Below the pieces are notes generated by a model, which was not told where the DNA came from, did no database searches, and was given only the letters and a program-made list of their open reading frames with translations. DNA of 63,809 nucleotides, counting the filler, from Hausera hauseri (lineage: Eukaryota): the NCBI GenBank assembly GCA_046269625.1. It is 10 parts of 10 records of this genome, joined end to end, with 100 filler letters (N's around TTAATTAATTAA, not from the genome) between each part and the next. Parts side by side here need not be neighbours in the genome. Positions count along the whole stretch, not along the records: positions 26,753 to 35,822 come from JBJURY010471022.1; positions 35,923 to 41,275 come from JBJURY010272841.1; 8 more parts are not named here. One strand, written 5' to 3'. This document shows, in pieces, positions 15,560 through 59,230 of the stretch. Within the stretch, counting starts at the first letter, position 1; each line of letters starts with the position of its first letter. The position numbers were made by a program, and so were the translations under genes.

Positions 15560-16536
15560 TAGATAAGCATCATGATATGACTTCTGTTTTGCTCTCAAAC
15601 ATCAAGATTTTGAAAGATGAAAGGTATACGCAATGTCCAATAGCCTAAAAACGGAACATTTCTCAAAATGTTGTTTCACGGACACTGTCTGGAAAACGTT
15701 CATCGAAATTCAACTCGGGAAGAGTTAAATGCTCATCTACCAGGTACGATCGGACCATAAGAATTGTCAAAAAGAATTCATTTATATCATCCCGGGAAAT
15801 TTAATCAACGTTGCCAGAAGAATATCAAGTTTCTTCTAGGACTATTCGCCGACGTCTGGTTGATGCAGAACTACATTCAAGGAAACCGGCTAAAAGCCAC
15901 TATTAAGTAAATTACAAAAGCGTAAACGTTTGATCTTCTGTCGAAAATACAAAGATTGGTCGCTCGAGCCGTGGAGAATCCTGCTTTCAACTCATGTCGT
16001 CCCTTGTGAAATCTGTCAAGCGACCTAAAGATCAACGTTATTCAACGCAATTTACTGTTCCAACAGTCAAACCCCCTGAATCCATAGTGGTTTGGCATGT
16101 TTTGAAGATAAAGGGAGAGGTTCAATCTGGTTTCTTCTTAAAAACGCCAAAATGAACTCATGAAAGTACAATGAATGTCTCACAGAAAAACTGACAGTAT
16201 GAAAATTTTCAGCACGATTCTGCATCAAGTCATGTGAGGAAGCGGTCTATGGCATGGTTTCGAGCAAATAATATTCAAATAAAAATCATGTGGAGAATTT
16301 ATGGATGGAATTGAAACAAAATGTAGCCTCTCAAAATCCCAAAAGTGCCACAGATTTACGCAGAATTATTGTGGAATCCTGGTACAGAGAAATTACTCCA
16401 GGCTATTGTAGAAAGCTTGCTGATTCATTACCAAGGCGTATTAAGTCAGTTTCATTGACGTTTCTGTATTTCATTATTTGTTAATTACAAATAAACGCCC
16501 TTTGTGGAAATTATGCTAATTTTTTGGCCACGAATG
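15560..16536 (+). mobile_element. Degenerate Tc1/mariner transposon (transposase pseudogene plus right terminal repeat)
   Basis: Fragments across frameshifts: VSSRTIRRRL, KRLIFCRKYKDW, TVPTVK...IVVW, FQHDSASSH, ENLWMELK...CRKLADSLPRRIKSV. It ends ...TTTTTGGCCACGAATG followed by TA. No left TIR was found. Confidence 0.85.
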
Positions 16537-17161: not shown

Positions 17162-19560
17162 TCAACAGTTGGTTATTGTCTGTACGATTTGTCGTACTCG
17201 ACAGAACAAATTGGACCCGAACTTTCTTGATGCACACGCCAATCTCGGACATGTATTTATAGAAACAAAAATATTCGATAGAGTCGTTGCAGCGTATTAC
17301 AAAGCCCTATAATTGGATTCTGATAATCCCATTTTGCACGAGAACCTTGCATGTGTTTATTACGAAGAGACGGTACGACCTCGCCATCGATAGTTATAGC
17401 AAGGCAATGGAACTACAGCCGAATTTCCCAGACGCGTACTGTAACCTCGCCAATGCACTCACAAAAAAAGAAACGTCACGAAAGCTGAGAAATGCTACAA
17501 CACTGCTCTCAGACAAATCCGAATCACGCAGATTCATTGAACAGCTTGGCCAATATCAAGTGGGAGCAAGGGCTGAACGAGGAGGCTATAAATCCATACA
17601 AGAAAGCACTAGAAATCTACCAAGAATTCGCCGTTGCCCATTCCAATCTTGTCAGTATGTTGCAACTGCAAGGAAATTTACAGACAGCACTCAGTCACTA
17701 TCGTGAAGCTATACATATTTCCCCGAATTTCGCAGATGCTTACTCGAACATGGGTAACGCATTTAAAGAACTACAGGACCTCCCCAATGCACTCCAATGC
17801 TACCAACGGGCAATTCAAATCAAGCCAACATTTGCCGACGCTCATTCCAATTTGTGAAGTGTAAACAAGGACACTGGCAACATCAATGAGGCCATTACAT
17901 CGTACACGTCTGCACTCAAAATAAAGACCAATTACCCGGAGGCGTTTTGCAATTTGACCCATTGTCTGCAGATAGTGTATGACTGGGCAGATTATGATCT
18001 GCTTATGAAGAAATTGGTACGGATAATCCACAAGCAACTGGAGCAAAGGAGATTTCCATCGGTACATCCTCTTCATACTATGTGGCATCCTCTGACACCT
18101 CATCAGAGGAAGGGCATTGCTGAAAGTCATACAAACTGTACCTGGACAAAGTTGCTCCACTCCACAAGCCAAACTACATGTTTGACAAGCATTTTGGTGG
18201 AAAACGTTTGCGAATTGGCTACGTCAGTTCCGATTTTCATAGTCACCCAACAAGCCATCTGATGCAAAGTATTCCCGGAATGAACGATAGATCACGACTT
18301 GAGATTTTCTGCTACTCACTTACATCAGATGACGGTACATCATTCCGACAGAAAATTCAGATAAAGGCAGAATATTTTGTGGGTCTTACAGCAATACCAA
18401 ATAACGGCGATGCTGTCAATCGTATTCCCAATGATAAAGTGCACATTCTCGTCAACATGAACGGGTACAGGAAAGGTGTACCAAACGAAATATTTGCACT
18501 GAAGCCGGCACCAATTCAGGTCATGTGGTTGGGATACCCAGGAAAGGGTGGTGCTAGTTACATAGATTACATCATGACGGATAGTGTCACATCTTCAACT
18601 GAGTATGCCGATGATTATTCAGAAAAATTGGCATACATGTACTATACGTATTTCGTCGGTGATTACAAACAGATGTTCCCTCATCCTACTAACCAGGTTA
18701 TCCTCAAAATATGGGGTTACAATAGCAGATTCAATTTCATCAGTGCATGTGGGTCCAATATCGATCAGATATTTCGTCTGGGTTGTGTGCAGGACTGCAC
18801 ATCAGTTAGTTTTTCTGTTGTGATGTTGGATTCGTTTCATGAGATAAATGACATGATAACAAACAAACGTGAGGTGACAATGATCAACGGCATCACCGTC
18901 ATCAACGGCACGGCCACCACAGAGACCGTTGAGAAATTCGCTGGAGAGAAACATCCATCGAACATCATCATCACATCTAGAAAACATTATAATTTACCAG
19001 ACAATGAAGTCGTGTTCTGCAATTTCAATCAGCTGTATAAAATCGGCCCAGAAACACTTCGCATGTGGGTGAAAATACTCAAGAATCGTCCGCGATCCGT
19101 TCCATGATTGTTGCGATTTCCCGCTGCCAGCGAAACAAACGTGTTCAAGGCATTTTCAGATTTCGGTGTAAAAGATGCGCACTTGCGTTTAATTTTCAGT
19201 GACGTTGTACCAAAGGAGAAATATATGCGACGAGGACAAGCAGCTGACATTTGTCTGGACACTCCTTTATGTAATGGACACACGACAGGAATGGATATTT
19301 TGTGGTCTGGTTGTTTAATGGTCACGTTGCCGGGGAGACATTGGCTAGTCAAGTGGCTTCCAACTAGATGAACACCCTCGGTTGTCCAGAAATGATAGCA
19401 GAGACAGAGGACGAGTATGTCAGTATTGCAGTAAGACTGGGTACTGACCCGAAATTACTGGAATCTGTCAGGAATAAGATATACACGCAGTATGGAAAGT
19501 TTATATATGGAGATCTCGCGGGATGCTGATAATAAAAAACAATCACAGAAAATTACTTGA
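17162..19560 (+). pseudogene. OGT: O-GlcNAc transferase pseudogene (TPR array plus catalytic domain), no introns seen, several frameshifts and stops
   Basis: TPRs ([26 protein letters not shown]), [83 protein letters not shown]-terminal YTRSMESLYME follows a short deletion. Confidence 0.95.
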
Positions 19561-29039: not shown

Positions 29040-29560
29040 TAGTTACGAATTAATTAGGTGCAACTCATAACAGCCCAATGCACCTTCTCATATACAGCGC
29101 CTAACTTGATGTATAGCTGCAAAACCTATAGTGTATAATATAGTTGGACTTTCGCTCATGAGTTAGCAGCAATTTTTTTATTCGTGAACCAGGAGGGCAT
29201 TGGCTGATTGGAGCTAAAGGCAGTTGGTCTAACGTATCGTGCTTATTAGCCGGAATGCTCAAATCAACTTCAAAGACGAGTACACGTCTTTGTGTGACAG
29301 TGTCGACAAAAGGCAATTGACTAAATAGGCTGTTTAATTTATCTTTATCGTAAATTCAAACTAAATTCGCAAATGGCCACAGTTGAGATAAAGCCCAGCA
29401 GTACAAATTATTCACATATATATACAAGATCGTTGTGCTTTCATCAGTGGTAACCCTATGCTTATTTACAGAAGTCATGCCACCGCGAATACCCGATTGG
29501 AAAAAATTATACATTTCTGGATCATGAATGTGCTCAATAAGACATGGACTCGTTGTTGTA
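29040..29560 (-). pseudogene. Fragment of a Polinton/adintovirus-type family B DNA polymerase
   Basis: DPEMYNFFQSGIRGGMTSVNKH, LYIYVNNLYCWALSQ, FEVDLSIP..HDTLDQLPLAP, KKLLLTH...YIIHYR. Visibly homologous to 56902-57306. Confidence 0.88.
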
Positions 29561-29714
29561 TGTATTACTGTATATATTAAAACAAAATCACATAATGTCT
29601 TAACAAATGACACAAAATAAAAGGTCCGTGAATTCGGCACCATCCCGTATGGATTCGATTTTATTTCCAATGGTTTAATCAAGTGAATCCACAAATTTTC
29701 CATCTATTTGTTCT

Positions 29715-30160
29715 ATGCAATCGACAACGGTTTTGAGCCAAATAGCGACTGCACACATGTCAAGAGTTCAATTTGTTTCGGTGTCATCGAAACTGTTAAG
29801 TGCAGAAACAGCTAACAATTCAGCGGTGTTACATTTGGCAAGAGGCCGATCAACAAGGCTTGTGTATCGATAAATTGCCATCGTAAATTTTCGTGATCCG
29901 AATGACCGACGAATAATGATTTCGTTGTGAAAGCATATGGCTGTACTTCAACATTAGCACGACTCACCTTGTTGAGAAAACTTGATTTGCCAACATTTGG
30001 ATAACCAGTCATAATGACCGTTCGACCCGATGTATCAATGGGTGGCAAACGACTCAGATGTTGTCTCGATTCTTCCAAATACTGGAATGTGGTTTGCGTG
30101 TTTTTTCTGCCTCATCAACTTCACCATTTTACCGAGAACCAGTCGTTTCAATGTCTATCA
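29715..30160 (-). pseudogene. GTPBP4: Nucleolar GTP-binding protein 1 (NOG1/GTPBP4) fragment
   Basis: LKRLVLGKM...[61 protein letters not shown]. Frameshifted and truncated at both ends. Confidence 0.9.
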
Positions 30161-31447: not shown

Positions 31448-34400
31448 CTAATAACTGCGACCAAACAGAGTGAAATACAGCGGTTTATTTTCACAGTCTT
31501 CACGAACGCATTTATTCCCAAGACCAGCCGGTTGGTCCAGTGGAATACACAAAGATTTCGCACCCATTGCCGGAGCACCTTCTTCCACGACAGCATTTCC
31601 AGCACTAATTTCCTTGATAGAATCTTCACATTTCCTATCACCACAGAACGGTGCCAAAATGAGCATTTTCTTATCGAGTGCCGCCGACAAATCCTTCAAA
31701 TTGTACGCAGTGATGATGTGATCATCTTGTTGTCGTTTCGCCTTTGCAAACATCTCCTTATGGATCGTGTCCAATTTCTCTGGCACCAATTTCTCCACAC
31801 TCTCATCCGGGATCGACTCCTTCACTCCATTGTACCGATAACACAATACGACCTGCTGTTTGACCAGATCTTTCGGTCCAATCTCCAATCGAATCGGGAC
31901 ACCTTTCAATTCCCATTGATTGAATTTCCATCCCGGTAATCGATTATCATCCAAATCAGTAACGACACGCACACCAACAGATTCCAATCGCTGACAAATA
32001 TCGTTGCATTTATCGAGCAATGTCTGTTTGTCATCATCAGTTGACTTGACTGTAATTCCACACGGAATAATGACAACCTGTACATCAGCAACCCGCGGTG
32101 GTAATACAACACCCTTATCATCACCATGGACCATTACAGCCACACCAATTGTTCTTGTTGTCATTCCCCATGAATTCTGATGAGCATATTCCATTGATTG
32201 GTTCTTATCCGTAAATCGAATGTCGTACATTTTACTGAAATTCTGACCCAAATGATGAGACGTCGCACCCTGAATTCCACGACCACTGCCGGCAATGTAC
32301 ACCTCAGTCGTTGTCGTGAAATCTCCACCGGGGAATTTCTCCTTCTCCGTTTTGCGACCCTTAATACAGGGAATGGCCAGAAGATCCTCATAAACATCAG
32401 CATAAATGTCCAGAATTTCGTACACCTCCTTCTCTGCGTCAGCTCGATTTGAATACGCTGTGTGTCCCTCCTGCCATAGGAATTCTCGTGTTCGCAGGAA
32501 CGGTGTCGGCTGTTTGAATTCCCATCGTACGACATTACACCATTGGTTCAATTTCAATGGCAAATCACGATGGGATTTGATCCATTTAGCGTAGTACGGA
32601 TACATGACCGTTTCACTGGTTGGTCGAATTGCGATATGCTCCTTCATTTCCGTATCTCCACTTTTCGTTACCCATGCTACTTCCGGTGAGAAATCTGCAA
32701 TATGGTCCTTTTCTTTGTTCAGATTGGATTTCGATACGAATAATGGGAAATAACATTTCTTTACACCGAGTGCCTTAAATCGTCGATTCAAATACGACTG
32801 AATGTTATCCCAGATCTCACACGCCCACGGACGTAGAATGTAACATCCGCTGATGTCGTAATACTCGATCATTTCGCTCTTTGTGATTACCTCGATGTAC
32901 CATTGAGGAAATGAATCAGCCATTGACACTTCCAAACCCAATCTTGTTTGTTTCTTCAAATTTGCATCTACAGATATGTCAGTTGGTTCCTCGAATTCGG
33001 CTCCTTTGGGTATCTTCTCTTTTGACTCTTGTGCTTTATTCTCTTTCTTTTTCGTTTTCTCATTCTTTGCACCATCCCCACTCTTTGACTTCTCAACTGC
33101 AGCAGTGTTGCTCTTGTCGACTTTCTTCGCTCCACCAGCCGGTCGTTCCTTCTTATTACCCTCAGGAATATTAATCAACACTAACGGATATTCTCTACCA
33201 CCACACTTAGTCGCACTGCCGTATTCCTCATCACAAATGAAATATCCTTTCCTCTGCAACTGGACAATATCGCCTTTTTTCAAATTAGCCAATTCAATAT
33301 CGCCATATAAACAGATTTCTTCTTTCGATTCTTTATTAACGTACTGTTTGAAATCATCATCTTTATCCAACAAACTTTTCGATATCAGTGAGTCATAGTA
33401 AACCGTTGAGACCGGTATGTCAAATAACTGCCTCTCCTCATTCTCACCCAATGGCAGCCACGTTACTTTTTGGGTCTTTTTGAAATCTTTGTCATCCAGA
33501 TTCAATTCGGCATTAACTGATTCGACGGTACCATCTTTTGATTTGTTAATCTTGTTTATTTTCAAATTACCCCAATTGATAAATGTAACATTCGTTTCTT
33601 CAACAAAATCGGCTGCATCGATTTTTTCAACGAGAACATGCGGACTGAACCAAATTGATTTGTTACCAATTTCGGGATTCTTCGGATGTTTTGCAACATC
33701 GGACTTGGTAACTGAATTTTGTCCAGCAACATGAACAACGACGTGATCAACACCACCTGCCAATATGCCGGTATATCGCGGAACGATGGCATCAATAACT
33801 TTTTTATTGAATGCCCAAATTTTATCCCATTCCATAAATACAACAGAGCGACCGAAACCCTGAGAAAGAATAAATTCCTTCAGTCCTTCGATAGTCAGAC
33901 CATGACGAAGTATTCCTCGGACAGTTGGCATACGAGGATCATCCCAACCACTAACATATCCCTGATTGACAATCCATGTCAATTTCCGTTTAGACAAAAC
34001 AGTATTTTGAAGAGATAATCGACTGTAATCTGATATTTCCGGTTTGCGTAAATTGAGCATATCAAGAATTCTATAGAACTGTTCGTTACGATCGTTGTAC
34101 TCGCTCGTCCGCAATGTGTGTGTCACACCTTCGATACTGTCGACAATTGGACAAGCAAAATCGTAGGTCGGATAAACGTTATATTTATCACCGGTTCTGA
34201 TATGTTTTTCTTTTTTGCAGCGGTAAATTGTTGGATCTCGCATACAACCGTTTTTAGACTGCATGTCCATTTTAATTCGGATGCAATATTTCTCACCAAC
34301 TTTTGTCCCGGCTTTCATTTCTTTCCATAAGGTCATGTTTTCGTCAACCGACTGATTACGGCACTTGGAAATTATACATTGTTCACGTTCTTTTCTCATC

Positions 34401-35092
34401 GTTTCGGAATCTGTATTATCGGCATAGGCATTGTTGCTGATTATTAACTGATCACAATAATTCATCAATTCATCGAAATAATCTGATGTGTATGTCAGAG
34501 CGTCGTACGTAATGCCAAGACTTTTAACATCCTCTAAAATGATTTTTTCAAATTCTTCGGATTCTTTTGCCGGATTGGTGTCATCAAATCTCATTATCAA
34601 TTTTCCATCATAATTATCCTTATAATGCTGGTTGATTAACGCTGCTTTGGCATGACCGATATGCAAATAGCCACTGGCTTCCGGAGGGAATCTAACGACC
34701 ACTTTGCCTTTTTCGGCATTTTTCAATGGTATAAACATACCTCCTTCTTCAAATTTTACGTTGCTAGCCAATTTTTCTTGAGCAACTTCTTTTGGCTTTT
34801 TTAACTCCCGTGGTTTTTCGATTTGCGATTTTACATAATTTTTAATGTCGGGTAACGAAGATAAAAAATTCACATATCGTTCAATATTTGACGAAACTGC
34901 CTTGTTTTTCAAATCATTCATAAACTCAGCATTTTTGATTAAAGTAGAATAAACAATCTGGTCAGCTTCAGTAAGACTGTCATTAACTAGAAAAGTTCGA
35001 AAACGAATATTTTCCTCCAGCTGTAAAATTAGATTTGAGAAATCACATCGTTTGGCTAACTGTTTCCAATTTTCAATTTGTAATTTATCCAT
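31448..35092 (-). CDS. EPRS: Bifunctional glutamyl-prolyl-tRNA synthetase, 1214 aa, single coding exon, no WHEP repeats
   Basis: GluRS: RFPPEASGYLHIGH, RFDDTNP, YPTYDFACP, VLSKRKL, GWDDPR. ProRS: KKQTRLGL, IRPTSET, VRWEFK..PFLRTREFLWQEGH, QGATSHHLGQNFS, C-terminal FGRSY. The ORF is intact. A probable 56-nt 5'UTR intron spans 35150-35095. Confidence 0.98.
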   Translation of the reverse strand: MDKLQIENWKQLAKRCDFSNLILQLEENIRFRTFLVNDSLTEADQIVYSTLIKNAEFMNDLKNKAVSSNIERYVNFLSSLPDIKNYVKSQIEKPRELKKPKEVAQEKLASNVKFEEGGMFIPLKNAEKGKVVVRFPPEASGYLHIGHAKAALINQHYKDNYDGKLIMRFDDTNPAKESEEFEKIILEDVKSLGITYDALTYTSDYFDELMNYCDQLIISNNAYADNTDSETMRKEREQCIISKCRNQSVDENMTLWKEMKAGTKVGEKYCIRIKMDMQSKNGCMRDPTIYRCKKEKHIRTGDKYNVYPTYDFACPIVDSIEGVTHTLRTSEYNDRNEQFYRILDMLNLRKPEISDYSRLSLQNTVLSKRKLTWIVNQGYVSGWDDPRMPTVRGILRHGLTIEGLKEFILSQGFGRSVVFMEWDKIWAFNKKVIDAIVPRYTGILAGGVDHVVVHVAGQNSVTKSDVAKHPKNPEIGNKSIWFSPHVLVEKIDAADFVEETNVTFINWGNLKINKINKSKDGTVESVNAELNLDDKDFKKTQKVTWLPLGENEERQLFDIPVSTVYYDSLISKSLLDKDDDFKQYVNKESKEEICLYGDIELANLKKGDIVQLQRKGYFICDEEYGSATKCGGREYPLVLINIPEGNKKERPAGGAKKVDKSNTAAVEKSKSGDGAKNEKTKKKENKAQESKEKIPKGAEFEEPTDISVDANLKKQTRLGLEVSMADSFPQWYIEVITKSEMIEYYDISGCYILRPWACEIWDNIQSYLNRRFKALGVKKCYFPLFVSKSNLNKEKDHIADFSPEVAWVTKSGDTEMKEHIAIRPTSETVMYPYYAKWIKSHRDLPLKLNQWCNVVRWEFKQPTPFLRTREFLWQEGHTAYSNRADAEKEVYEILDIYADVYEDLLAIPCIKGRKTEKEKFPGGDFTTTTEVYIAGSGRGIQGATSHHLGQNFSKMYDIRFTDKNQSMEYAHQNSWGMTTRTIGVAVMVHGDDKGVVLPPRVADVQVVIIPCGITVKSTDDDKQTLLDKCNDICQRLESVGVRVVTDLDDNRLPGWKFNQWELKGVPIRLEIGPKDLVKQQVVLCYRYNGVKESIPDESVEKLVPEKLDTIHKEMFAKAKRQQDDHIITAYNLKDLSAALDKKMLILAPFCGDRKCEDSIKEISAGNAVVEEGAPAMGAKSLCIPLDQPAGLGNKCVREDCENKPLYFTLFGRSY

Positions 35093-35745
35093 ATCTAAAA
35101 CCGAAACGAATCACGGATAAAATGAAAACAAGAATAAAATTTCATCATACCTGCTAAGTCAAAACGTCAACCTCAAACAATTATTTAAACAAAAGTTATT
35201 TAAATATAAATTTATTAAAATCATATTAACGGATATTTTGATGTTATATTTTTTGACAAAAAGTTATGACTCCGTTGCTATGTATAAATGGCTTGAAATA
35301 TACATGACAAACAAACAATTTTAGTCTAATTTACTGATATACTGGGTTACATTTGCATTTGTTAAAATTCAATAAAGCCTTTGATGTTGCTTAATGAATT
35401 TAATAACCTAAGCATACCCGTCTACACACTCAATAGAATTTTAAAAATTTGAATCCTAACTGAGTATCTAACGCCACCTTTAGTTAATTTACAGCATATA
35501 CCCGTCTCTAACTCTAAGAATGGGAGTGAAATTGTGGAACACTTAAAAATTACAACGTTTTCAATTTGTGTACAAAATTATTATTTAAATTTAATTTATC
35601 AATGCAACCTTATATAATTATACTATATATTATTTCAAACGAAAATAAACACAGAGCAATATCTATTTTAATCAATCATATTGAATTCAAAGTTTACAAT
35701 AATTTTCTCAGAAGTTGATTTTTAAAAAATTCAGTTTTCTGACAA

Positions 35746-35788: not shown

Positions 35789-36815
35789 GTGAAATCTGAC
35801 AATTTAATGATCTACTATTTAANNNNNNNNNNNNNNNNNNNNNNNNNNNNNNNNNNNNNNNNNNNNTTAATTAATTAANNNNNNNNNNNNNNNNNNNNNN
35901 NNNNNNNNNNNNNNNNNNNNNNGTGAATTTGCAACCTTATAAAGTAATAGCTCAACCAAGAGGATCTACCAGTTTAACAGTATAACTATAGGTAGATCAA
36001 ATTGAATTAATTATAAATTATATTCGTCTATGATTACATAAGTCAGAACATTTACCAGAAATTTAACCGTGCAAATACTCATTTAAGTTATATCTTCGAG
36101 AAAGTTAGTGGTCACTCCGGCGGAATCAAGCAGATAGAAAGAGATTACTTATTATCGTTCTGAAATTAAAAGCAATGGACAACCGACAGGTGGAATCGAC
36201 CGTGGACCAAGATAATAGTATCGGTAAATATTGTGTTAAATTTTAAATAGATATTAACATTAAGAAATAAATGAAAGTTTATAAAGTTATGCCGCTATGT
36301 TGATATTTTATGTATGTTTCATTTCAATAAAGTATTGACAAAATCGGTACAGTTACTGCTAAGGTAACTTAGATACGATGAGTTGAGTCGTTCTAAGAAA
36401 TTTTGTAGTTTCAAATTAATGGCACTTTAAAACACTTTATGGACAGAAATTGAATGGATCCTTACATATCTAATGAGCGAAGTACAATTGTGCCTCGTTA
36501 TCCGACCATAAACCGTTATAGAAAGCTGGTCACGTTCCGAGCAGTTTTTATTTTTATCACTTTAGACCACTTTATATGAAACTTTCTCTCATCCACACCA
36601 TCTAAACAACATATACAGACTCACATATGTACATAGACCCATGTCCCTCCCTCTCGCCTCCCCCACAGTGTTTTGATAAATGTCCATGAACAAATTCCGT
36701 CTTGCATCCAACAACTTTTTGTCGTCGTCTGCACTCTTCTAGCCTCATTCTGGTGATCACTTTTAGTCAGGACTAGGAGAAAAGTGAAGACCATATTACT
36801 TGTATTTTTTTCTAG

Positions 36816-36951
36816 GTGTTACCCCTGAAATGGAGATCCTGATGCAGAGGAGAATCTATCCATTCCTCCTGATGGTGGTGTCACTCATCGGCATCCTGTC
36901 TTTCCAGATCAGACAGTTTAAACGACTTTATGAGCACATCAAAAATGACAA
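36816..36951 (+). CDS. MARCHF6: Single vertebrate/teleost-like exon of E3 ligase MARCH6 (near the C-terminus)
   Basis: GVTPEMEILMQRRIYPFLLMVVSLIGILSFQIRQFKRLYEHIKNDK matches the vertebrate MARCH6 C-terminal region. Polypyrimidine-AG acceptor at 36814-36815 and GT donor at 36952-36953. Codons are GC3-rich. No other MARCH6 exon was recognised in the contig. Confidence 0.9.
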
Positions 36952-36974
36952 GTATGAATGTTCCGGTCTTCCAT

Positions 36975-37260
36975 CATTTTTTTTGACAATTCTAAAGGCA
37001 ACTTTAAGGAAGCTTATATTTCACACAGAGTTGTACCATATGAGCAATCTTACCCACAATCGGTAGCTGATAGTTTAAGTAAACAGATTGAAAATTTTTC
37101 CGATATGGGTAGTGAGTTGAAGCTTGTGAAGATTCTTAAATACTGTTTCCATATATTTAAAACAAGTCTATAACCCTACTTGTCTAGCAAGTCCTATATT
37201 CAAACACCTAATGCTTTAAAAAATGCAATGACCGTTGTAAATACCCAAAATGAGGGCTGT
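36975..37260 (+). pseudogene. N-terminal fragment of a Polinton-type PolB
   Basis: FDNSKGNFKEAYISHRVVPYEQ...IENFSDMGS...SYIQTPNALKNAMTVVNTQN aligns by eye with FENVEGDRKQWYLSHRAVPY*E...IASYTEKGS...SFIATPAALKQSLSVANVKN at approx. 59045-58775 (-). Confidence 0.8.
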
Positions 37261-37759
37261 AATTCTACCGATAATGTCGACATTGGTTAAACGCTAACAG
37301 AGTCAAGTTGAGGATGATAATTCCAAAAAAATAAATCCAAGTTTCCAAAAGAGCATACTACGTACAAAGTTTATTTACAACAGATATAACGTGAATTGTT
37401 ATGTACGGAAAAATTCAAAACTTAATCAATTTTTAGTCATCAGTTATTTCAAATCATGAATTTATTCATGCTCTTCACGATCCAAATGCAAACAAATAAT
37501 GAGACATTATGGATTTGGCTTCACCAATTTTACTTGTTAAAAACAATTGAGGTAAACTTGCAACAGATTCCAAATAAAAGAAAAGGTCCAAAATAACGCA
37601 ATAAACAAGAAAGAAATGTTTATGCTTCACCAAAATTTTTTGACAAAAAAGAATTTGAAATTGTTCACACACTGTTAAACGTGTCAATTGTAACTTTTGC
37701 AAAATGTTCAAACAAATACTGTTGGCACACCTTTATCTAAGATGACAACTTTTGTATCG

Positions 37760-40700
37760 TATAGTTGCATGGTGGGGAAATACCTTTCACCGATCCGACA
37801 GCCTCAACCAGTGCAACCACATTCTACATCCCCCTCGGTGTCAGGATAAAGACTATAAAGAAAAAAACAAACGCAGGTTATAGTAAGAAAAGGAAAGATT
37901 TGTGGCTATTCGGTTTTGGTATGTGTCAGATGTTGTATTCCATCTATAAATTTCTTCCTACTGTAAGTACTAAATGTCACATGACGTGATCTATTAGATG
38001 TTGCTGCCGCTTGTGGAGTTGTTTGAGGGAGAGATTCTGCAGATTTTGTGGTGTTTTGGGAGGATGTTTTATGAGATGGAAAAAGATCACGCGACGAAGG
38101 CGAAACTAAAGATGGAAGTGAATCGTGCGATAAAGGTGATATGACTGCAGGGTGAGTGTGTGGATGTGCAGGGGATGACGGCGAAGTAAGTGGTGAAGGA
38201 ACAATAGACGGAAGTGAGGATAACTGATTGTGACGCGAGAACGATTGATGCGACGGATCAAAATTATTGAGAAAATTGGTTGATGGCTCGAGGGGATAGA
38301 AGTTAGAGTTAGGATTTGAAACAATGCTGTTATCCTGGTCATCGTCAACGAAGAATGCTGGCTTAAGATTAGAAATGTGTACATTTTGAGGTTTGTCCTT
38401 GCGTAACATAGTAGCGGTGTGCGAGGTAAGGTTGAATAGTTTGTTAGGTTTAACGTATTGAGGACGAAAACCAGAGGGTGACGGATCCTTAAGCCACACA
38501 AACTTGGCTGAGTATAAGTCTTCTGAAATATAGGATTTGTTTTTATTTATAAAGCGGCAAAATGCGTTTGCGTTAATATCTACAAAGTGGGACTGTGCCG
38601 CACGAATAACGTCATCTGACGAACTTTCATCGAGATTGGAGAGCTCAAAAGGGCACGAATTGGTGTCCCAAGGAGAGCCTCAGGTGGAGCACAACATGTG
38701 GTGGTGGGTGGCGTGTTGCGCCAACCGAGTAGCACAAGAGGAAGAATTGAGGTCCAGTTATGATTGTTGTTTGACAAGATTTTCAAAGAAATCTTCATGG
38801 TTCTGTAAAATCTATCAAGAAGACCATTTGCTTGGGGGTGGTACGGTGTCGTATGAAAACTGGCTATACCCAAGTGCTTTACCAGAGATTTAAAAAGATC
38901 AGCTTCGAATTGCGGACTCTGGTCCGTTATTATGTGACGTGGTGAACCAAAACGACTGACCCATATCTTGATAAATGCATCTGCTACAGAGTCGGTGTTG
39001 GTTGATCGAAGAGAAACGGCTTCCGGCTAGCGAAANNNNNNNNNNTTTGAGATGTTTATGAACCTTATATTGTTGACATGCTACACATCCCTTAACCCAG
39101 ACCTGTACATCTGTGCGCATATTCGGCCATGCAACATAACGTTGCAGTAGCCAAAATGTAGCTTTTGAACCCGGATGATGAAGAGAGTGAAAGTGAGTGA
39201 AGGCTGTCTTTTGTAGCAATGGAGCAAGGATGATTTTTTTATTAATCAAGCTGGATGTGTCGTAGGCGATTCCATAGATGATCTCAATCGATTTGAAAAC
39301 TTGAAGAATGTCAGATGATGGCTAATTACTTCTCAGGACTTCAGATGAAAAAATTTTCTGAACTGTAATTGAGTTGACCGACCGCGAAAGAAAGTCTGCT
39401 ACTAAATTCTCGGTGCCTGAAATATATTTCATGGAAAAACTAAACGTGGGCAGGTATGATATCTGTCGTTCTTGTCTCGGCGATGGCTGTTTTAACGCCA
39501 TTATGTGAAGTAAAGGCTTATGGTCTGTTTGAATGGTTAACTGACGTGATAGAAGCAAATGCTTGAAATGCTTTACCGCTGGAACTACAGCCAAAAGTTC
39601 GCGATCGAATGTTGAGTATCGGCTTTCTGGTCACGTTAGCTTTCGGAAATAAAATTTTAATGGTTCATCAACACTATTGTATATTTGGTGTAATATCGCA
39701 CCAGTGGCTGTGATGAAGGCATCGGTGATTAGTATGAGTTCCGCGTTGGGTTTTTGAAAAGCCAAGATTTCAACGGTTTTCAGACCTTCACGAGGGCGAT
39801 CAAATTAATTTACTAGATCGGGAGTCCAGTGGATTAAGTGTCTTTTCTTTTCAGATGAGAGTGGTGCGAAAAGTGCCGTTAGTTCGGAGCAGTGTGGCAT
39901 GTATTTGTGTATGAAATGCAATGTCCCTAGAAAACTCATCATATGGATAGTAGTAGTTGGTAACGTCACATTTTTTAATTGTTGTAAGCAATCAGGCTTG
40001 GGCGAATAACATTCGGGAGCAATTATATGGCCTAAACCGTTGACGCGTTTCTGGAAGAAATTGCATTTGGCGAAATTGATATGCAGGTTGCTTTGATGCA
40101 ATCTGTGGAAAATAATTCTAAGGTGCTCATGATGCTGTTTGATCGAGGTGTAAGCGACTAATAGATCATCTATGTATGGGTGAGCAAAGTAAAAACATGA
40201 CAGAACGGTGTCAATGTGGCGCTGAAAGGTCTAAGATGCACTACGTAGCCGAAAGTCATGAAGATGTATTCATAAAGGCCAAATGGTGTGATGACAACAG
40301 TTTTTGGAATATCATCAGGTACAACAGGAATTTGATGGTAGGCCTTATCCAGATCAATGGTAGAGTAGGTATTGGTGTTATTGAGGCTATAAAGAATATC
40401 CTTAATAAGTGGTAGTGGATAAATATCTGTAATAGTTAGGTTGTTTAATTGGCGATAGTCACCACATGGCCTCTAGGTACCATCTTTCTTTACCACTACA
40501 TGAAAAGGAGAAGCCCACGGTGAATTCGATCTCCGAATGATGTTAGACTTTTCTAGTTCATTGAATTCCTGTTTCACAGCTTTATGTCTGCGTGGCGACA
40601 AGGGTCTGACCTTTTGTTTGATAGGACTCTTATGCTTTGATACTATATGGTGATAAGATGTGGATGGAGGCTTGAAGTTTACGTCCCTTTTAACTATGCA

Positions 40701-41275
40701 AAAGCAAGACGTTGCGATGTATGATTTAATATCGGAGTCTAGAGATAAGAATGAATAAGGCATATCATCGGACGAGACAGTTGCAGTAATTGAGGAAGAA
40801 CAACCGGCATTGCCACGGTCAATATTCAGTTTGGATTTTTGTTTTAAAATTGATTTGTGATTGCTATACTCGTTAGAATTTGACGAGGTATTCAGTATAT
40901 TTATAGAAAAGTGCATTGAGATGTTCGCTAGATTGTCTGCGAGACATATGTTTGGAATTGCGATCAAGTTCCTGCTCAAGACAGCCGTATTTGCAATGGA
41001 CCAATAGATCATGTACGGCAAGAAAATTTGAGCCTATTATATTGGAGATTTAATATTGGCCACGTGGAACTTCCAGACAAACGTATCTGGCAAGTTGGCA
41101 AATGTGAAAGTCAGTTCCGTGGTTCCTGCAACGTGCAACGGTTGCCCACTGTCAGTAAAGAGCGGAGGACAGGAAATTATAGTGGATGTAGGATTGAAGG
41201 ACAAGGGAAGGAGTGAAAAGGCAGCTACTTAATCTATTAGGAATTCGATATGTGAGGTATCTATGCATAACAATG
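37760..41275 (-). mobile_element. Second decayed CsRN1-like gypsy element (PR, RT, RH, IN, PPT, start of 3' LTR)
   Basis: SPWASPFHVVVKKDGT, YIDD, TDHKPL, HSLHHPG...CVACQ, TTPYHPQANGL. PPT GAGGGGGA at 37836-37829 is followed by TG. Confidence 0.93.
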
Positions 41276-47032: not shown

Positions 47033-48290
47033 AAACATGCGATTGAAACCAATATGTTTGACGATGTATCTAAGTCAGTATTATAAAATAAAAAAGAAAT
47101 CGATTCATTTCTGAAGTTTTTGGCAAAGAACAAGTCGTAAATCGAGGGATACATCGAATAATAGATGACACAGCGGGAGAAGGAAAATGGGATCGATTAT
47201 GGACGCCGGATGCCTATAACAAAATTATCTTAAATTTGTGGTACAAAATGTGGGTAGGATTTCTAACATTTGGCCAAGTAGCCTCAGCGTTTCTGGCAAT
47301 CAATTTCATTATACAGACTTTAAAAGTTTGTATTAACTCTGTGCTGAATGCTTATGATATCTACAATCTAACGGGACTATCGCTAAGTATAACACATGCT
47401 TTATTTTTCCCAGTCGGTAAATTTATCAAAGCCTACCATGAGACACAGTGGCGAGGTAAATTAGAAAAACATGTTAGTTACAAATCAGAGAAACAATTCC
47501 CAAAGGATACTTCATCAAGCTCATATGACGGTACTGCCCCTAGGTACTATCCTACAACAGGAATTCCTAGAGACAAGAGAAGAAAATTCAAGTTTGCGAA
47601 GCTTAAGCGAAAGGATAAGCACAAATTGCCTGATGCACAGTATGAAAGTAAAACAATGCCTAATTTTAAATTATCCAATCTAACAAACTTAACGGACCCT
47701 TATGCGAAGAAAGAAAACTACATAAAATTATATAGTTTGCCTAAGTACTCTCAAGAAGAGATACGTCAATTCAATATTACGCAAAATATGAAAAATAACC
47801 GAGTAACGTTACCAGTATCACCTAAACTGGGCATGATACCGCAGGTATCTTGTCACCTAGTAAACAGGTGGATAAAAGCTCAACCAGATAGGAAATCCCA
47901 TTATACAATTCCATCAACTAAACCCAGTAATGTGCAACAAAAACATCAAAATATTTAAGCTGTTATCCAGAATTGACTGAACTCAAAAACAAACCAAAAT
48001 GATCAGACAATGATACCCAATATATGGAAAATTTAAGGGTCATATTAGTTAACGGGGAGGCTAGATACTGTTTAGCCAGTTATACTTTGATGAAACCTCA
48101 CATAGATGATAACAAAAACGTTCTAAAATTTCTCGAACTACTAAGAGATAATCGACTTCACACAACAGTTCATTTCGGTACTTTTGACCGAAACGCTATG
48201 GTGGATACGGGAGCTAGTGTTACGTTAATAGCGAAGTAGGAAATTCTGGAAGAATTACAATCTCAAATAAAATTAGCCACCAAAGACTCA
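47033..48290 (+). mobile_element. Retroelement fragment: C-terminal part of a chuvirus-like envelope glycoprotein followed by aspartyl protease-like domain(s)
   Basis: FGKEQVVNRGIHR...LWTPDAYNKIILNLWYKMWVGFLTFGQVASAFLAINFIIQTLKVCINSVLNAYDIYNLTGLSLSITHALF (membrane region). Degenerate PQVSCHLVNRWIKAQPD..SHYTI. Clear retropepsin motif NAMVDTGASVTLI at approx. 48192-48230. Confidence 0.6.
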
Positions 48291-48933
48291 CTTGGTACTG
48301 TGGTGCCGCGGTCGTGGACGCGTTTCGTTTTCTCGACAAAGTGTTGTTTGTAAATCTCAAATCATTGAAGCAGAAGCTCAACAATCTCTTCAACATATCA
48401 GAAAATCATAATATTTTGGACTCATTGACGAATTGACATTCAGCATGCAAATCATCCGCAGAAATTAATCGAGGAGAAAATGCAGATATTTACCGATCTA
48501 ATCCTGATAAAAACGACAAATTCAATATTTTAATTCTGGAATGAAATGACAATTACCAGTGTATAAAACATGAATGTTTCTGTTTTCTCTACAGTTTTTT
48601 CTTTACACGAACGTTTAATGTATATAGTTTGTTGGCTAACATATTAGTTTATATATGTAAATATGTTTGTAAATTTTCTGGAAATATGTATTGATTTAAA
48701 ATAAATAAATAAATAATTTGTGATTCAAGACATTTCATTTCTTGTGGATTTATCTCTTCTATCTCGTCGTCATTTTGGATTTTTTTCTAATGAAATTACT
48801 ACCCATGTCCTTGAAACCACATTGGTGTCAGAACGTTATACAGCAGAAAACTATGTATTACCAACAAGTTACAGAAAGTCTGTCAGCAAAAGAGATTAGT
48901 TTTTATTCACCACTTACATTTACCGATGATACA

Positions 48934-50875
48934 ATGTTTTCTGGGACATTATCAAATAAAATTAAGGCTAGCAAATTTTCCAATTCCGAACCTCAGAGTA
49001 CGTCATCGACAAGTAGTAAACTACTGTTAACAGTTTTATGCCAATTCTGTGGCCAATTTCATGGAAAAGATTTACCACATCTCTATGATTACAATGAATC
49101 AGTTGATTCAACATTATTGTGCATTATTTGTCATCAACCGATAGTCGATCCAATTGATACAAATTGCGGTCATACATTTTGTAAACCTTGTCTGAATAAA
49201 CATTCATCAATTCAAGCGTTGTGTCCCGTTGATAAGAATATAATCAATTCTCAGGAGTGCAAACAGGCATCCAATATCGTTAAAAAATTATTGGATAAAT
49301 TAAAAGTTGTTTGTCCAAATGTGGATTATTGTGAAGAAATTTTATATCGAATGACTTATACCAGTATTTAAAATTCAAATGTCGTGGGGCATTCAAAAAA
49401 GAAATAATCAAAGATAAAACTCAGATAACTGAAGGTGAGCTATGTGAAATAGAAATAATCCGTGTTAATCAATATGACCTTGGGTTCTCTTTTGTCGGTG
49501 GAGTGAACTCACCTCTAAGATGTATTGTTATTCAAGAGATGTGTTTGGACGGATTGATTCCCCAGGATGACAGATTACGTCCTAGTGATCAGCTGCTTTC
49601 GTTAAACGGAATCGACCTCAGTTCAGCTACACACGCTAAAGCGAAACGTGCCCTTTCAGCGCTAATACCGAGGTGTAAATTTGTGGTATTACGCGAATGT
49701 GTTCCTGTTTTCACTGAGCATGAGACGATAGCGGTTGTTCTTTCAAAGAAAAATGATTCACGGTTAGGTATTGCTCTGGATACAAAAAAATATTACGAAG
49801 GTATATACGTACGAAATGTTATTCCCGGTAGTGAGGCTGACATAAATGGATCATTTACAAAAGGCGACAGAATTTTATTTATTAATAATGTTGATATTAC
49901 AAACGAATTTCAAGAGTTTGCTGCAAAATTAATAAAAGAAGCTTCAGTTGATATTTCATTTGTTGTTCAAAGGAGACTGAGTGTTCCCGATGTTGTTAAA
50001 ACCAAAGATGACAGAATTTCCTCAGGGAGCTGGAGCACGAATCAAATGTCAAAAGGTTGTCATTCTGAAATGATTTCTCGGCGACAAGTTGTAACTTTAA
50101 GTAGCAAATGTTCAGAAACTAACAGTCCTAGATCGTACTTTCAAAGTAGAAACACATTTGATACTCAATGGCCGACAGTTGACAATTACCAGAAATAAAA
50201 TTTACAGCCGCAGTTTCCTACGAATGTTCTACGCATTCGGAAGGAGCCAAATGAATCGCTTTCAATTACTGTTGCAGGGGGTTTAAATTCTCACCGCGGT
50301 GACAGTCAAATATACGTTACAAATATATTTCCAAATGGTGTGCTTCACCATTATAAAAGGATTAGAAAAGGCTGTGTATTGATCGGGATTAATCAATACA
50401 CTTCACTTCACTTGTCTCACAAAGAAGCTGTTGATACATTGAAACATGAGTGCTATGGTCATCAGCTTGTTGATCTTCATTACCTTGACGGTCCAGAAAC
50501 GAGTTCAGGTGCTGGTAATTTTATGCCAAGCTGGAAATTTTGGCTCCAGTTACCTTTCTTTTGTTCAAATCCGAAAATTGTTGAATTGAAAAAAAAGAAT
50601 CACCAAGTGTTAGTTTAGGATTCAGTATTGTTGGTGGAATTGATTCAGCTAATTCTATTGACGCAGGGGGCTTTGGGACTAATTTCATTATGATTAAAAC
50701 CATTTCGCCTGGCTCAGTTGCTTGTAAGAACGGAAAATTAAAATGTGGAGATATACTCCTCGAAGTGAATAATACCTCTTTGATGAGTGTTACCCACAAC
50801 GAAGCAGTACTGTGTCTTAAGAAGGCAGTCAATCGTTTTTTTAAGATAATCTCTTGGCCTGGAACTATCGTTTAA
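48934..50875 (+). pseudogene. LNX: LNX1/2-type RING plus 4-PDZ E3 ligase, full length, no introns seen, at least two frameshifts and one stop
   Basis: CQFCGQFH...HLYDY..VD..LLCIICHQPIVDPIDTNCGHTFC, KLLDKLKVVCP, EGELCEIEI...LGFSFVGG, four PDZ domains, F.PSW..WL.LP, C-terminal SWPGTIV. Confidence 0.92.
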
Positions 50876-51039: not shown

Positions 51040-52255
51040 TAATTTATGTCAACTTTACAAATGGTGTCAGATATTTATAAAATTCTTAATACAAAACGAT
51101 GCACAGTTTATTCAAGAAAATCACATCCAGCAGCCTTGGAAACATTGTTTGGAGTTCTTTTTAAACATCCCGAATAACGAATAGAATAAACAGCATACGA
51201 AAAATTTTATGAATACTTTAATAAAGATGTTGAAGTATGAGAATGAAGAAAATGCAAACATCTGCGTGAAACTGCTGTTTGATATTCATAAATCTCAATG
51301 TCCTAATTTTTCCAATGAAATCCTCCAATCCTTAAAATTCGTACGAAACGTATATAAAGAATTACAGAATCATACAATCAAAATATTTGCTCAATCTCCG
51401 TATTATGAAGTTGACAATATCGAAGAATTTTCTTTGGAAACAAAGATTTTGGAAACGTTTACCGTCACAAAAACCTTTACGATTCAAAAGGACAATAATG
51501 GAAATCGAATAGAATTTAATCTTATCCCAAAATCGTGTTACTCATTGAAAGTAATGCAAGAAGTCCCCGTTTTATTAGTTTTAATGTACCAATTTCATAA
51601 GTCATACGTTTCGAATGAAATTCTTTTATTTATCCCATTTATGGACCTTTTAAATCTCGTTCCGACAGACGCCCAAAAATGATTTACAGTTCAATGAAAG
51701 TCTATATCTGCATTTTCTGGCTGCTCAATTGAAAGCGTTGTCCTTTCTGGCATGTCGTGAAAATTTTCAAGAAAGCATTGTTAGAGAAACATGCTGATAA
51801 TTTGGTTTAAGGTGTATCAAAGGATTGTCAACATTCCGTCGTACGTTACGGAAGGAGTATTTCATTACAGCTCGACATATTTTAGCAATTCAGGAAATTA
51901 AATCACGATTGCCAGAATTAATGAATGAAGACATTCTCATAGTAAATGGGTTTACAGTTTATCGGTTACTAAGACCAATGGCCTTTAGCACATTAGCTGA
52001 TATAATCCATTGTGTCAAAAACGAATTAAGTTTACCAAAGCAACCAACATATACATCAGCAACATGCATGATGATACTTTGGTTTTTAGTATTCAGCAAA
52101 TGAGCTTAAAATTGTTACTAAATTTAATCGAACCAATAAAAAATTGTGTCCAAATTTCGGCTGATGCCCAGCAAGGTCGGCAAATACTAACGAAAATTTT
52201 GCATGATTTTGTTAAACGACTGGGAAACATCGGCAAGTTTTATCTCCCAAGACTT
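51040..52255 (+). pseudogene. TRRAP: N-terminal fragment of TRRAP/Tra1
   Basis: QFIQE..QQ..K, ENEENANICVKLLFDIHK, IPKSCYSLKVMQEVPVLLVLMYQ, LRKEYFITARHIL, LRPMAFSTLADIIH, IQQMSLKLLLNLIE. About 400 codons with frameshifts. Confidence 0.9.
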
Positions 52256-53094
52256 GGAAAAGAAAGTTTAATCGAATGTATTAAAAAACGAAAAAAAATG
52301 TTGTAAAGTCCGTCGGAGAGGCAACACGGCTTGATCGAGAAGAATTTGAAGCATTATTTATAGTTTTCAAAGGTGTTTATATTGCACCCAGTTGTTGCAC
52401 AACCCATTTGTTGACGCTCGCACCAAATATGAACAGTTATGATCCTGTCCGTCCATATTATGATGCCTGCAAAATAGATTACGAACTCTTTGCCAGGTTG
52501 TTCAAATGTCTTTTACCCTGGGGATGTCCTAATTTTATCTCATTGAGGGTTTTCCGTTTGCTCGATTTGAATCTGGATAACATGTTTAATTTTAAAGAAT
52601 TTGCTTGGATAGTTGGTATCGTACGCATGTGCACTTTGGAGGAAAAATTGAGATTCTTATACCGTCATTATTATAGACCTTGTCTTTTGCCTGGCGATGA
52701 AAAACTATTGAAGAAATCGGAAAATGTATCGTCAATGAAACCTTGGTGTAACTGTCTTGATCACACAAAAAGTGACGGTAGTCATGAATTCGGAATAGAA
52801 CTAACGGAAGCAATGCTTGAATACATTCCAGATAGTGATGAAATAAATAAAGAAGCTAAAGATGGTTTGCCCAAAAAGCCAGAAAAGAATGAGAATATCG
52901 AAGTCAAACCGAAGGTTTCGAAATCACGATCAAAAACTGCATCTATCAAAAATACTTTCCATTGGTTAAAAGACTCCGATAATTTACCAAACATGCAATA
53001 TAACGATATGCTAGAATCGTGGACAGGTCTCTACGATTTTGTAGCTAATAGTGATTCCATGAGCAACACAGTCTCTTCCATGCTTAAAGATTAG
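52256..53094 (+). pseudogene. C-terminal (EF-hand) fragment of a TBC1D8/TBC1D9-family RabGAP
   Basis: KKNVVKSV...EEFEALFIVFK, YDPVRPYYDACKIDYELFARLFKCLLPW, RVFRLLDLNLDNMFNFKEF, LEEKLRFLY. The GRAM and TBC domains are absent. Confidence 0.85.
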
Positions 53095-55918: not shown

Positions 55919-58900
55919 TTATTCCAAACGCCAATGTCCGTATGCCCAACTCTTATTCCGCTTCACCCACTTACGCTTATCATCATTGCATGATAAAGCG
56001 ACTTTTGAACTGGTCACCGTATACAGCTGGTGCTCAATTGATTGGATGATCGTTTGTGACACAACAGCCTTTGATTGTCCTCCGTCTCCTGCTTCATAGA
56101 CACGGCGATAATTACCAAGGTCGATTTCCATCTAGGCCAACTGAACTGTTTTGGCGCGCATTTTCGGTCCACAGTCAGTTAAAAGGCTATAACATTTTGG
56201 TCGTAGAAATATCCACTCCCTATACTGAAGCCGACCTTCACTTTTATTTTTGAAGCAGCCAATTTTGTTTATGATTGCGTTGCTGTACAATGGATGATTC
56301 TGTGGGTAATTGGACGTGTCCAGTAATCCGTCTGCCATCATTTGCTGCAATAGTGGTTCGAGATTGCCGTTTTCCAGTTCCAAGAAAAAACTGTCTGTCA
56401 CCGACAATTATATTGATCCTGCATCTGCCGCCGCCGATCATTTGCCGGTAACGTGCCAAATCGTGATACTGCAGCTCATACATTCACAACATGCTCAGGT
56501 CCAATACCACTTGTCCTATATAATTTGATCGGTCCAGTACGACTTCTCTGTTTAAAAGCACGGTAACCAATCCATCGGCAATGTGCATTGACTGCCTGAA
56601 ATGTGCCTTGCTCGTGTGCGTAACCAAGCGCTTTTCGCTATTGCATTGGCGTACATTGTGCCGCTTTTTCAGATTCTCCACTGGAAATGTTTTTCAGCTT
56701 GTAATATTCCTTTTCGAACTTTGTTCAAGCTTCTGCCCCTTTCTCCGAATTTCTATCTATGTACGCCTTGAAAATTGGAACTTGAGCAAATCGGATCGCA
56801 CGATACAGCTGTGTGACGCGTACACCCAACTGAATGTAAAATTGCACCGGACGCCAATTATCTGTAATTTTGCTTGGGTTCATGCGTAATAAGCAGCTTC
56901 TTCACCTTCGAGCCCGGCGTACATTGATTGGTGCGACCGGTAGTTTATCCAGAAAGTCATGCAGCTCATCTGGTACCACGAGATTAACCTTTATCGGGTA
57001 TCCGATTGAGCTGTTTTCTGCTGTTGTCGTGTCTGCTCTCGACACATTTTCCAGTATTGTGTTCAGGTCCTGTTTGTTAACTACCCATTCGAATGAACCG
57101 TACGGCAAGGGTTGTGAAAGCGCCCAGCCGTACAGATTACTAATGTCGATATACAACAGTGATGTGGTATCATTACTGGTTACGTGATGCTTGTTGACAA
57201 ATGTCATGCCGCTGCGAATACCAACATCAAACATTCGGTACATATCCGGGTCTTGCAATGGCGCTATATCACGATCTAGTGACATCAGAGTTGATGCCCA
57301 ACTCATTTCGGGTATTGATTAAACGTTGAGTGGCTCCAGCCTATCTTCTGCCAACGCTTTCGCTCGAAACGCCTGGAACACATTGGCTAATAAGTACACG
57401 TCCAGTTTAAGATACTGGTGCATGTACTCCAACATGTTTCTACAGCCAAGTTCTGTCCAAGATTCTTGTGCTCTATGATATTATTCTTCTGTGATGCCTG
57501 TCCGTTGCGGCGGTATTTCCTCTGCTGTCCGGAGTCGCTCATATGATGTTGCAAAGTCATGGAAATATGCCTTTGCTGCGTGCAGTGTGGGGAACTGCGT
57601 TGAGATTATCGGCACATCCGGCAAGGCATTTACCAGCTTCACCAGTGATTCATTGAGAAATTGCAATGAATCAAGGAAGAGTACCTGGAACCGGTTTATG
57701 CGTGCTAACAGGGACAGGTACTTCTCTATTGTTGTTTGGATTATGGACAGTTCCCAGTGCCGAAATCCGTTGATGGCCCATTTAAGTATATGGCGGCAAT
57801 CATAACCTCGGAAATTATGAATGATAACCGGTAGGAATGGCCGCAAACGCCTTGTTAAATTGCATGCGTTGCATGCTGCTCCCAAGTATCGTCCGGTGAA
57901 ATGATCATGGTCCGGTACGAGCCGTTCCTGTGCGTCAAAAGGCTATTTTGTGGCAGAGGTAATATTCATCGGTAGCAGCGAAAAGCAGCGGTTTATATTC
58001 GTCTGTTTATATCAAGGGCTTAGTGCTATTATTACTGTACCATGGTGCGATTTTCGTTTTCACTATCGTTTTCAACTGTTGCAGGAAATCGCGTATACAG
58101 TTCCAACCATGAAAAACGTATTATTGCGGTTGTCCGGCGGCTTTTGGTCGTATACGTTGTGCCGCGGTAGGATTGCTTTGATATCGGCATATACCACATA
58201 TGCCGGACTGTCTGTTTTCGACCAGTCACTGAATCTCAGCTCCTTTTTGACTGACATGACGTACATTGTTGCTTCTGATGAATTTTGTCTGCACAGCGCC
58301 AAATGTTTTCCCATGTCGTTTTTGGCCTGAAACCATGCAGACATGTAGGACATCATTTACAATTTATAAGCTTTTTGATGAATTGGTGGTGATCCATGTT
58401 CAGCAGTCTGTCCAATTTGATTACTGCCACGTAGCGACATTTATCTCCTTGCTCCAACAGCAACAAATTTACCGAGCGTCCATTCGGGTTCCGACTGCGA
58501 TAAATTATATCCACGTGTGGCTTTTTGTATATCTCTTCATCTGCCGGTATTTCTACGATTGTTTTGTACCGGAAAACGTTGATTGCCATAGTAGGATTAC
58601 GCCGTTCAAATGTCGGGATAGATTTCAGTTTCATCGGCATCCAGCTTTCATCAAATTCCAATTCGGAAAAATACTGCCGATACTTCTTTGGACGATTTGC
58701 ATGATTTCTAACCACTTCGTCGTATTTGAATATAGCCAGAATACTGTAAATAAAACAGTATTCGTCGTCGGTATTTTTTACATTCGCTACCGACAGAGAT
58801 TGCTTTAGAGCTGCTGGTGTCGCTATGAATGATTGCCCAGACAATTATATCATATCATTCAACTTTGTTATGATAAAGCCGAGAGTTGCAATTTTTATAA

Positions 58901-59230
58901 TTCTCTAGCCACTACCCTTTTCGGTGTAGCTGGCGATTTTTTCATCCAGCTTCTCGCCTACATCGGCGATAAAATCTTCCTAATATGGTACAGCTCGATG
59001 TGATAGGTACCATTGTTTCCTGTCACCTTCAACATTTTCAAATTTCCTCAAGTGCGTAATATTGCACTTTGCAGTGTTGGTGTTGAAATTTCTCTTTTCA
59101 ATTCCAACCGGTTGCGCACGCTGGACGGAACATGTCTCAATTTTGTTGTTGTTGTTGTTGTTTTCGCCGACATGTTCACTTTTATGTCCACGTATGATCT
59201 GTTCAAATCGTACTTGGCATTAATGTCGGG
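55919..59230 (-). mobile_element. Near full-length decayed protein-primed family B DNA polymerase of a Polinton/adintovirus-like element
   Basis: Motifs in order: VKNTDDEYCFIYSILA, YVVYADIK (exo I), DHDHFTGRYLGAACNACNL (endonuclease VII-like), HNFRGYD (exo II), FLDSLQF, GIRSGMT, YIDISNLYGWALSQPLPYG, YIGQVVLDLS, TDSFF, LRPKCYS, KVALSCNDDKR. Confidence 0.92.

Follow-up and report, generated by a model that had tools for sequence, protein, structure and literature searches.

Chimeric contamination within contigs is a known class of error in draft assemblies (section 2.7 of PMC10978663). Among parasites, transfer claims linking Schistosoma with salmonids, humans or sturgeon have been refuted and others are contested on grounds of contamination or fragmented assemblies, according to the available part of PMC13155389, while the corresponding part of PMC10899095 describes the support for host-plant DNA in cyst nematodes as poor and ambiguous. 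Foreign cargo of another kind is known from nematode Mavericks, where, according to the accessible text of bioRxiv 10.1101/2022.07.12.499685, it sits in largely complete elements, with the terminal repeat on one side and the integrase on the other. Besides PolB, the core genes of Polintons include a retroviral-like integrase, a packaging ATPase, a protease and a capsid gene, as listed in the section of PMC9683012 at hand. Our search of the literature, which covered titles and abstract openings and few subscription journals, returned no paper reporting a confirmed insertion of fish genomic DNA into a fish parasite.

The window analysed here (the whole stretch of DNA, 63,809 nucleotides) consists of ten contigs and artificial spacers, and the finding sits in contig 6 (35923-41275). 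As in chimeric contamination (PMC10978663, same section), two organisms are met in one contig and a mixed specimen confounds the assembly, but here the host piece is short and flanked left and right by parasite DNA, and one junction has a measurable 21-bp overlap. The refuted claims of host DNA in schistosomes (salmonid repeats, mouse albumin, MHC; PMC13155389, available part) likewise concern vertebrate sequence credited to a parasite and contested in the same way, although some of them came from EST libraries or PCR, whereas the present junction lies inside an assembled contig. Like the nematode Maverick cargo of the bioRxiv text, the piece is intron-bearing cellular DNA beside a Maverick-type gene; unlike that cargo, it has no element context, cargo region or whole gene around it, the foreign DNA interrupts PolB, and it is near-identical to a living fish. 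Taking all routes together, we consider the fish MARCHF6 piece of contig 6 to be very probably an artefact. The features of the locus are collected in Table 1.

Table 1. Features of contig 6 and two genes elsewhere in the window.
Feature	Position	Strand	Evidence and remarks
Left flank, parasite-type, non-coding, low copy	35923..36544	.	CpG o/e 1.25; X1-identical contigs; beyond X2/X3 fish contigs
Fish genomic piece, intron - exon - intron of MARCHF6	36545..36996, 452 bp	+	Matches to X2/X3 fish contigs; CpG o/e 0.43
Left terminal 21-mer, candidate overlap with parasite flank (from composition)	36545..36565	.	A/T count, 18/21
MARCHF6 (MARCH6) exon, 136 bp, frame intact	36816..36951	+	AG acceptor, GT donor, Pfam MARCHF6_C
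Sole base differing from closest fish	36965	+	G in window; A in X2, X3, X8
Two-way overlap, fish-identical and with seven in-register PolB-like codons	36976..36996, 21 bp	+	Fish contigs and PolB alignments
Decayed N-terminal fragment of protein-primed PolB (Polinton/Maverick/adintovirus type)	36976..37254 (end approximate)	+	In-frame stop at 37174
KDEL-receptor gene fragment, decayed, in parasite-type DNA	37469..37636	-	Pfam ER_lumen_recept, E 3e-10
Broken gypsy-type LTR retrotransposon, parasite family	37909..41275	-	Reverse transcriptase (RT) and integrase domains
Longer decayed protein-primed PolB copy, contig 9	56135..59668 (ends approximate)	-	Pfam DNA_pol_B_2 (PF03175), E 2e-15, above cut-off; collinear with P0241
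Glutamyl-prolyl-tRNA synthetase (EPRS), intact, intronless, 1220 residues	31451-35110	-	About 50-60% identical to animal homologues

CpG is depleted in contigs 1 and 2 (o/e 0.45 and 0.39), against 0.88-1.09 in contigs 3-10. Contig 2 codes for CD22/Siglec-like V-set and C2-set immunoglobulin exons and is therefore read, from composition and domains rather than from alignment to a fish genome, as a plain fish contig inside the same assembly; contaminant DNA is thus present there as a separate contig. The parasite-type DNA is probably that of a flatworm or another fast-evolving spiralian. Its EPRS gene groups with tapeworm sequences (FastTree, SH-like support 100) in a tree of 31 hand-picked rows from the best 120 of 7888 matches, which is open to long-branch attraction and in which no row is labelled as a monogenean, trematode, acanthocephalan or rotifer. 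No WHEP domain was found in EPRS (31451-35110), and its exact sequence is absent from the protein collection.

Matching the query 36250-37350 against public runs gave 24 listed runs, of which X1, X2, X3 and X8 were compared in detail, all as contigs. None of the 24, which come from the searchable part of the public runs, contains as much as half of the words of this query, and none is an RNA run, so that they have no bearing on expression. An 8,926-bp contig of X2 spans 36545-36996 with a single difference (451/452, 99.8%), a 5,594-bp contig of X3 spans the same interval with 6 differences, and a 522-bp contig of X8 spans 36545-36913 with 7 differences. Because the X2 and X3 contigs match the whole interval and run into unrelated sequence exactly at 36545 and 36996, these 452 bp, with their introns, are genomic DNA of a fish and hardly differ from that of a living one. 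The initial annotation had concluded from the retained intron flanks that the source was genomic DNA and not mRNA, and the flanks indeed lie on these fish contigs, with 1 and 6 differences. Since they match fish DNA, both a retrocopy and a conserved MARCHF6 gene of the parasite's own were rejected as origins. The near-perfect identity to a fish is moreover one of the signs set beforehand as refuting a transfer. A verified transfer would show divergence from the donor or presence in several individuals or species; the piece has 1/452 differences from the X2 fish, and the listed runs each contain less than half of the junction words. The single differing base may be a read error, an allele or a later mutation; the fish-identical contig of X1 stops just short of it, at 36964.

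The exon within this piece was recovered as originally described, with both splice sites and a vertebrate-like MARCH6 peptide. Its borders read tttttttctag/GT and AA/gtatga (exon in capitals), with a pyrimidine tract before the AG. The 46-residue peptide matches Pfam MARCHF6_C (PF23113, E 4e-8), the domain of the MARCHF6 E3 ubiquitin ligase of ray-finned fish, with which it shares 46/46 residues; the identical peptide occurs in 88 of the best 120 homologues listed, every named one of which is a ray-finned fish, and it ends 28 residues short of the C-terminus in most fish proteins. The residues that flank it in full-length fish proteins differ from the read-through of the window, and the exon flanks are therefore intron; the splice sites fall where, in other fish, translation of the genomic DNA departs from the protein. 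Unlike in the fish gene, however, this one exon stands alone and out of context, and lacking promoter, start and partner exons it would be functionless in this contig. A PDB sequence search with the exon gave no match. The remark that its codons are GC3-rich and unlike those of the other genes also held: the exon has a GC3 of 0.64, and seven parasite-type ORFs range from 0.28 to 0.46 (P 8e-4 versus the EPRS rate, though 10 of 1176 EPRS windows reach that value).

Run X1 contains contigs identical to the left flank (36079-36331 and 36309-36522, depth 2.65-2.9) as well as a contig identical to the fish piece (36738-36964, depth 3.0). Since one run carries both, X1 is a mixture of parasite-type and fish DNA; it could be the very run from which the window derives, and it does not count as independent support. 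These depths give no coverage step between left flank and exon, a step that had been proposed as a sign against integration. X1 cover is absent at 36523-36737 and 36965-36980, and no contig bridges either junction among the listed contigs of X1, X2, X3 and X8, neither of which is counted as evidence, the records being filtered. In X2 and X8, where the fish piece is part of longer contigs, there are also diverged parasite-type PolB and gypsy contigs over 36963-39035, which may reflect infection by a related parasite or cross-sample carry-over.

To the right of the exon, homology to PolB begins 24 nt past the donor, in agreement with the distance of about 25 nt given initially, and the reported kinship with the contig-9 copy was likewise found (37% identical, E 2e-13 within the window). 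The relic is 56% identical to P0241, a protein that bears DNA_pol_B_2 (above cut-off) and Endonuclease_7. A full HMMER search with the PolB fragment returned 6 proteins, of which P0242 (G5 repeats) was spurious and was dropped; a word-indexed search with the same fragment gave no match, and a scan of viral contigs with the contig-9 PolB gave no relative. Many distinct, diverged X1 contigs fall on the relic and on the gypsy element, and the relic is a member of a multi-copy parasite repeat family. Its summed X1 depth (about 50,000, versus about 3 on the flank) is not a copy number and is used as "multi-copy" only. The fish genomic origin and the PolB fragment first proposed were correct, but the fish piece is longer than had been thought and the two sequences overlap by 21 bp instead of abutting.

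The initial annotation had suggested capture by a Polinton-like virus, that is, that a Polinton or adintovirus took fish DNA as cargo into the parasite, in the manner of nematode Mavericks. A protein-primed PolB fragment does adjoin the fish piece, and nematode Mavericks do bear intron-containing cargo (bioRxiv 10.1101/2022.07.12.499685, accessible text), but we regard such a capture as extremely improbable, and of all readings it fits worst. The fish DNA cuts into the PolB coding sequence, which it overlaps, and does not lie between a left terminal repeat and an integrase as Maverick cargo does; Polinton-type PolB is present as a fragment only, a 280-bp relic with a stop, and this relic is old while the fish DNA is recent. 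A six-frame search of 35923-36544 and 36997-37900 found no Polinton family, and no integrase, packaging ATPase, protease or capsid linked to PolB (heavily decayed genes could escape such a search); the integrase on contig 6 belongs to the gypsy element. Nor did any self-match within the 5.4 kb of contig 6 indicate Polinton terminal repeats. Capture is thus unsupported: fish DNA has taken the place of PolB's upstream codons in register, the relic itself is degraded, and it is accompanied by neither an integrase nor a capsid gene nor a terminal repeat.

The right junction can be resolved in detail. Among five outside PolB homologues aligned, P0241 and P0246 start at 36976, two start at 36982 and one at 36997. 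In the register of P0241, set by the downstream alignment, there are 3 identities in the 7 overlap codons, none in the 23 codons upstream and 13 in the 20 downstream, and for P0241 as for P0246 the 21-nt overlap has the top score among 864 windows of the fish piece. The contig-9 PolB agrees at 13 of the 23 bases of 36974-36996 (P 0.008) and at 4/29 just upstream, while the nearest listed X1 repeat contig matches 47 bp on 36981-37027 with 3 differences. As fish identity extends to 36996 and PolB likeness begins at 36976, the right join appears to sit on a 21-base stretch belonging to both partners, with fish DNA in the place of PolB's upstream codons. A short word common to both partners, such as is expected at the junction of a chimeric assembly, is therefore present here. 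Insertion into an intact PolB of which the left flank would be the upstream half was rejected, as 0/5 PolB homologues align to that flank.

At the left end, the A/T count of the terminal 21-mer is reached by 5 of the 432 21-mers of the fish piece, the first and the last among them, and both ends are so AT-rich in 1113 of 204320 segments of the fish-like contig 2 (0.5%). With no direct repeat longer than 6 bp and no inverted repeat longer than 7 bp near the junctions, neither a target-site duplication nor a terminal inverted repeat was detected there.

The initial annotation had treated a chimeric assembly as a real option, and with the shared 21-bp word and the fish contig 2 it is now the favoured reading: an assembler probably welded the fish piece between unrelated parasite stretches through short (about 21-base) chance overlaps. 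The sample would be a thinly sequenced mixture of host and parasite, in which host DNA would assemble as islands some hundreds of bases long; the ends of an island could then be joined to parasite DNA by a de Bruijn step at small k or by gap closing. The right join would rest on the 21-bp word shared with the PolB relic and the left join presumably on another short shared word, and pieces welded twice should have AT-rich words and large repeat families at their ends, as this one does. A depth of about 3 gives read islands of 300-530 bp, assuming 150-bp reads. A rough Markov model, trained on about 52 kb and yielding order-of-magnitude figures, puts the number of exact 21-mer matches arising by chance at 0.4-0.8 for each 450-bp fish island in an assumed pool of 1e9 letters of parasite-like DNA; two such matches per island would occur in 5-20% of cases, and at k=31 about 0 matches would be expected. 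With about a million host islands (an order-of-magnitude estimate in which read length and pool size are assumed), doubly welded pieces are therefore to be expected. The smallest k at which short-read assemblers start is by standard 21, a value that we singled out after the data were seen.

The same overlap and composition would fit chimeric library molecules, an artefact too, in which pieces of fish and parasite DNA became linked in the ligation or amplification step (by template switching at shared AT-rich words) and were kept by a permissive low-coverage assembly. With contig depth near 3, the make-up of a contig can hang on single molecules, and the lone difference, at 36965, is 32 bases short of the right end, a position that would suit a read error. 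Still, two events 452 bp apart would be needed, or one event plus an assembler join, and a 21-bp match to one repeat copy would seem easier for a graph than for a polymerase, so that we hold this route to be unlikely.

Some observations count against the assembler join and would suit a real, very recent insertion, in which host DNA eaten by the parasite, probably a flatworm, was patched into a break by microhomology-mediated end-joining with deletion of the upstream part of the PolB relic. The junctions are gap-free in one contig, depth in X1 is alike on left flank and exon, as a real single-copy insertion would give, and one base differs from all three fish compared. End-joining in vivo also uses microhomology and AT-rich breaks, which together with the absent target-site duplication would fit this origin, and the parasite genome tolerates scattered gene fragments. 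On the other hand, an identity of 99.8% with introns leaves no time for decay, whereas the neighbouring relics are 56-64% identical to their relatives, and free host DNA in the same assembly accounts equally for the identity, the gap-free contig and the depth. The 21-bp overlap is also long for polymerase-theta joining, whose overlaps are typically a few bases. Earlier flatworm claims of such transfer failed (PMC13155389, available part), and the search in cyst nematodes gave poor support for host-plant inserts (PMC10899095, available part). We therefore judge a real insertion to be quite unlikely.

If real, the insertion would show at base resolution a rare event, the entry of vertebrate DNA into the genome of an animal parasite, where earlier claims failed, and would offer a PCR-testable assay for how often feeding parasites take up host DNA. 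If it is an artefact, it is a warning that this assembly mixes host and parasite within contigs; whole-contig filtering therefore cannot clean it, and other "transfer" calls from the assembly need read-level checks.

In the rest of contig 6, no credible Pfam family was found in the left flank (35923-36544). The gypsy family reported on this contig was confirmed, the element being 64% identical in DNA to that of contig 4. Several distinct X1 contigs fall on the KDEL-receptor stretch, which seems to be a cellular gene piece amplified as a repeat. Far more X1 contigs fall on a short piece at 36963-37274 than on the sequence around it, as though this piece had been amplified separately. Three of the eight parasite-type contigs each contain a decayed piece of protein-primed PolB (36976-37254, 29359-29703 and 56135-59668), and Polinton-type relics look abundant in the parasite genome.

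Several observations concern other contigs. Intronless, broken copies of housekeeping genes lie at 17263-19104, 48724-50872, 51185-53091 and 29815-30111, comprising an O-GlcNAc transferase-like gene (PF13844), a RING/PDZ gene, which we take to be LNX-like, two further pieces, presumably TRRAP-like and TBC1D9-like, and a NOG1-like GTPase piece (PF01926). They suggest either many processed pseudogenes or an intron-poor, error-rich assembly. A fragment of a Monjiviricetes (chuvirus-like) fusion glycoprotein (47092-47955, + strand, Pfam E 1.4e-12) belongs to the parasite-type genome, as an endogenous viral element or as an env-like gene, and a decayed Tc1-type transposase is found in contig 3 (about 15750-15900, + strand, PF01498, E 1e-6). 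No Rfam family was found in the window. Contig 1 carries a fish-type tandem array of 118 copies of a 42-bp unit (325-5261), after which its right end (5262-5881) turns CpG-rich and scores -24 bits (strongly parasite-like), against about 0 to +10 in the array. This end has no Pfam match; it may be another chimera of host and parasite DNA, or else a fish repeat rich in CpG.
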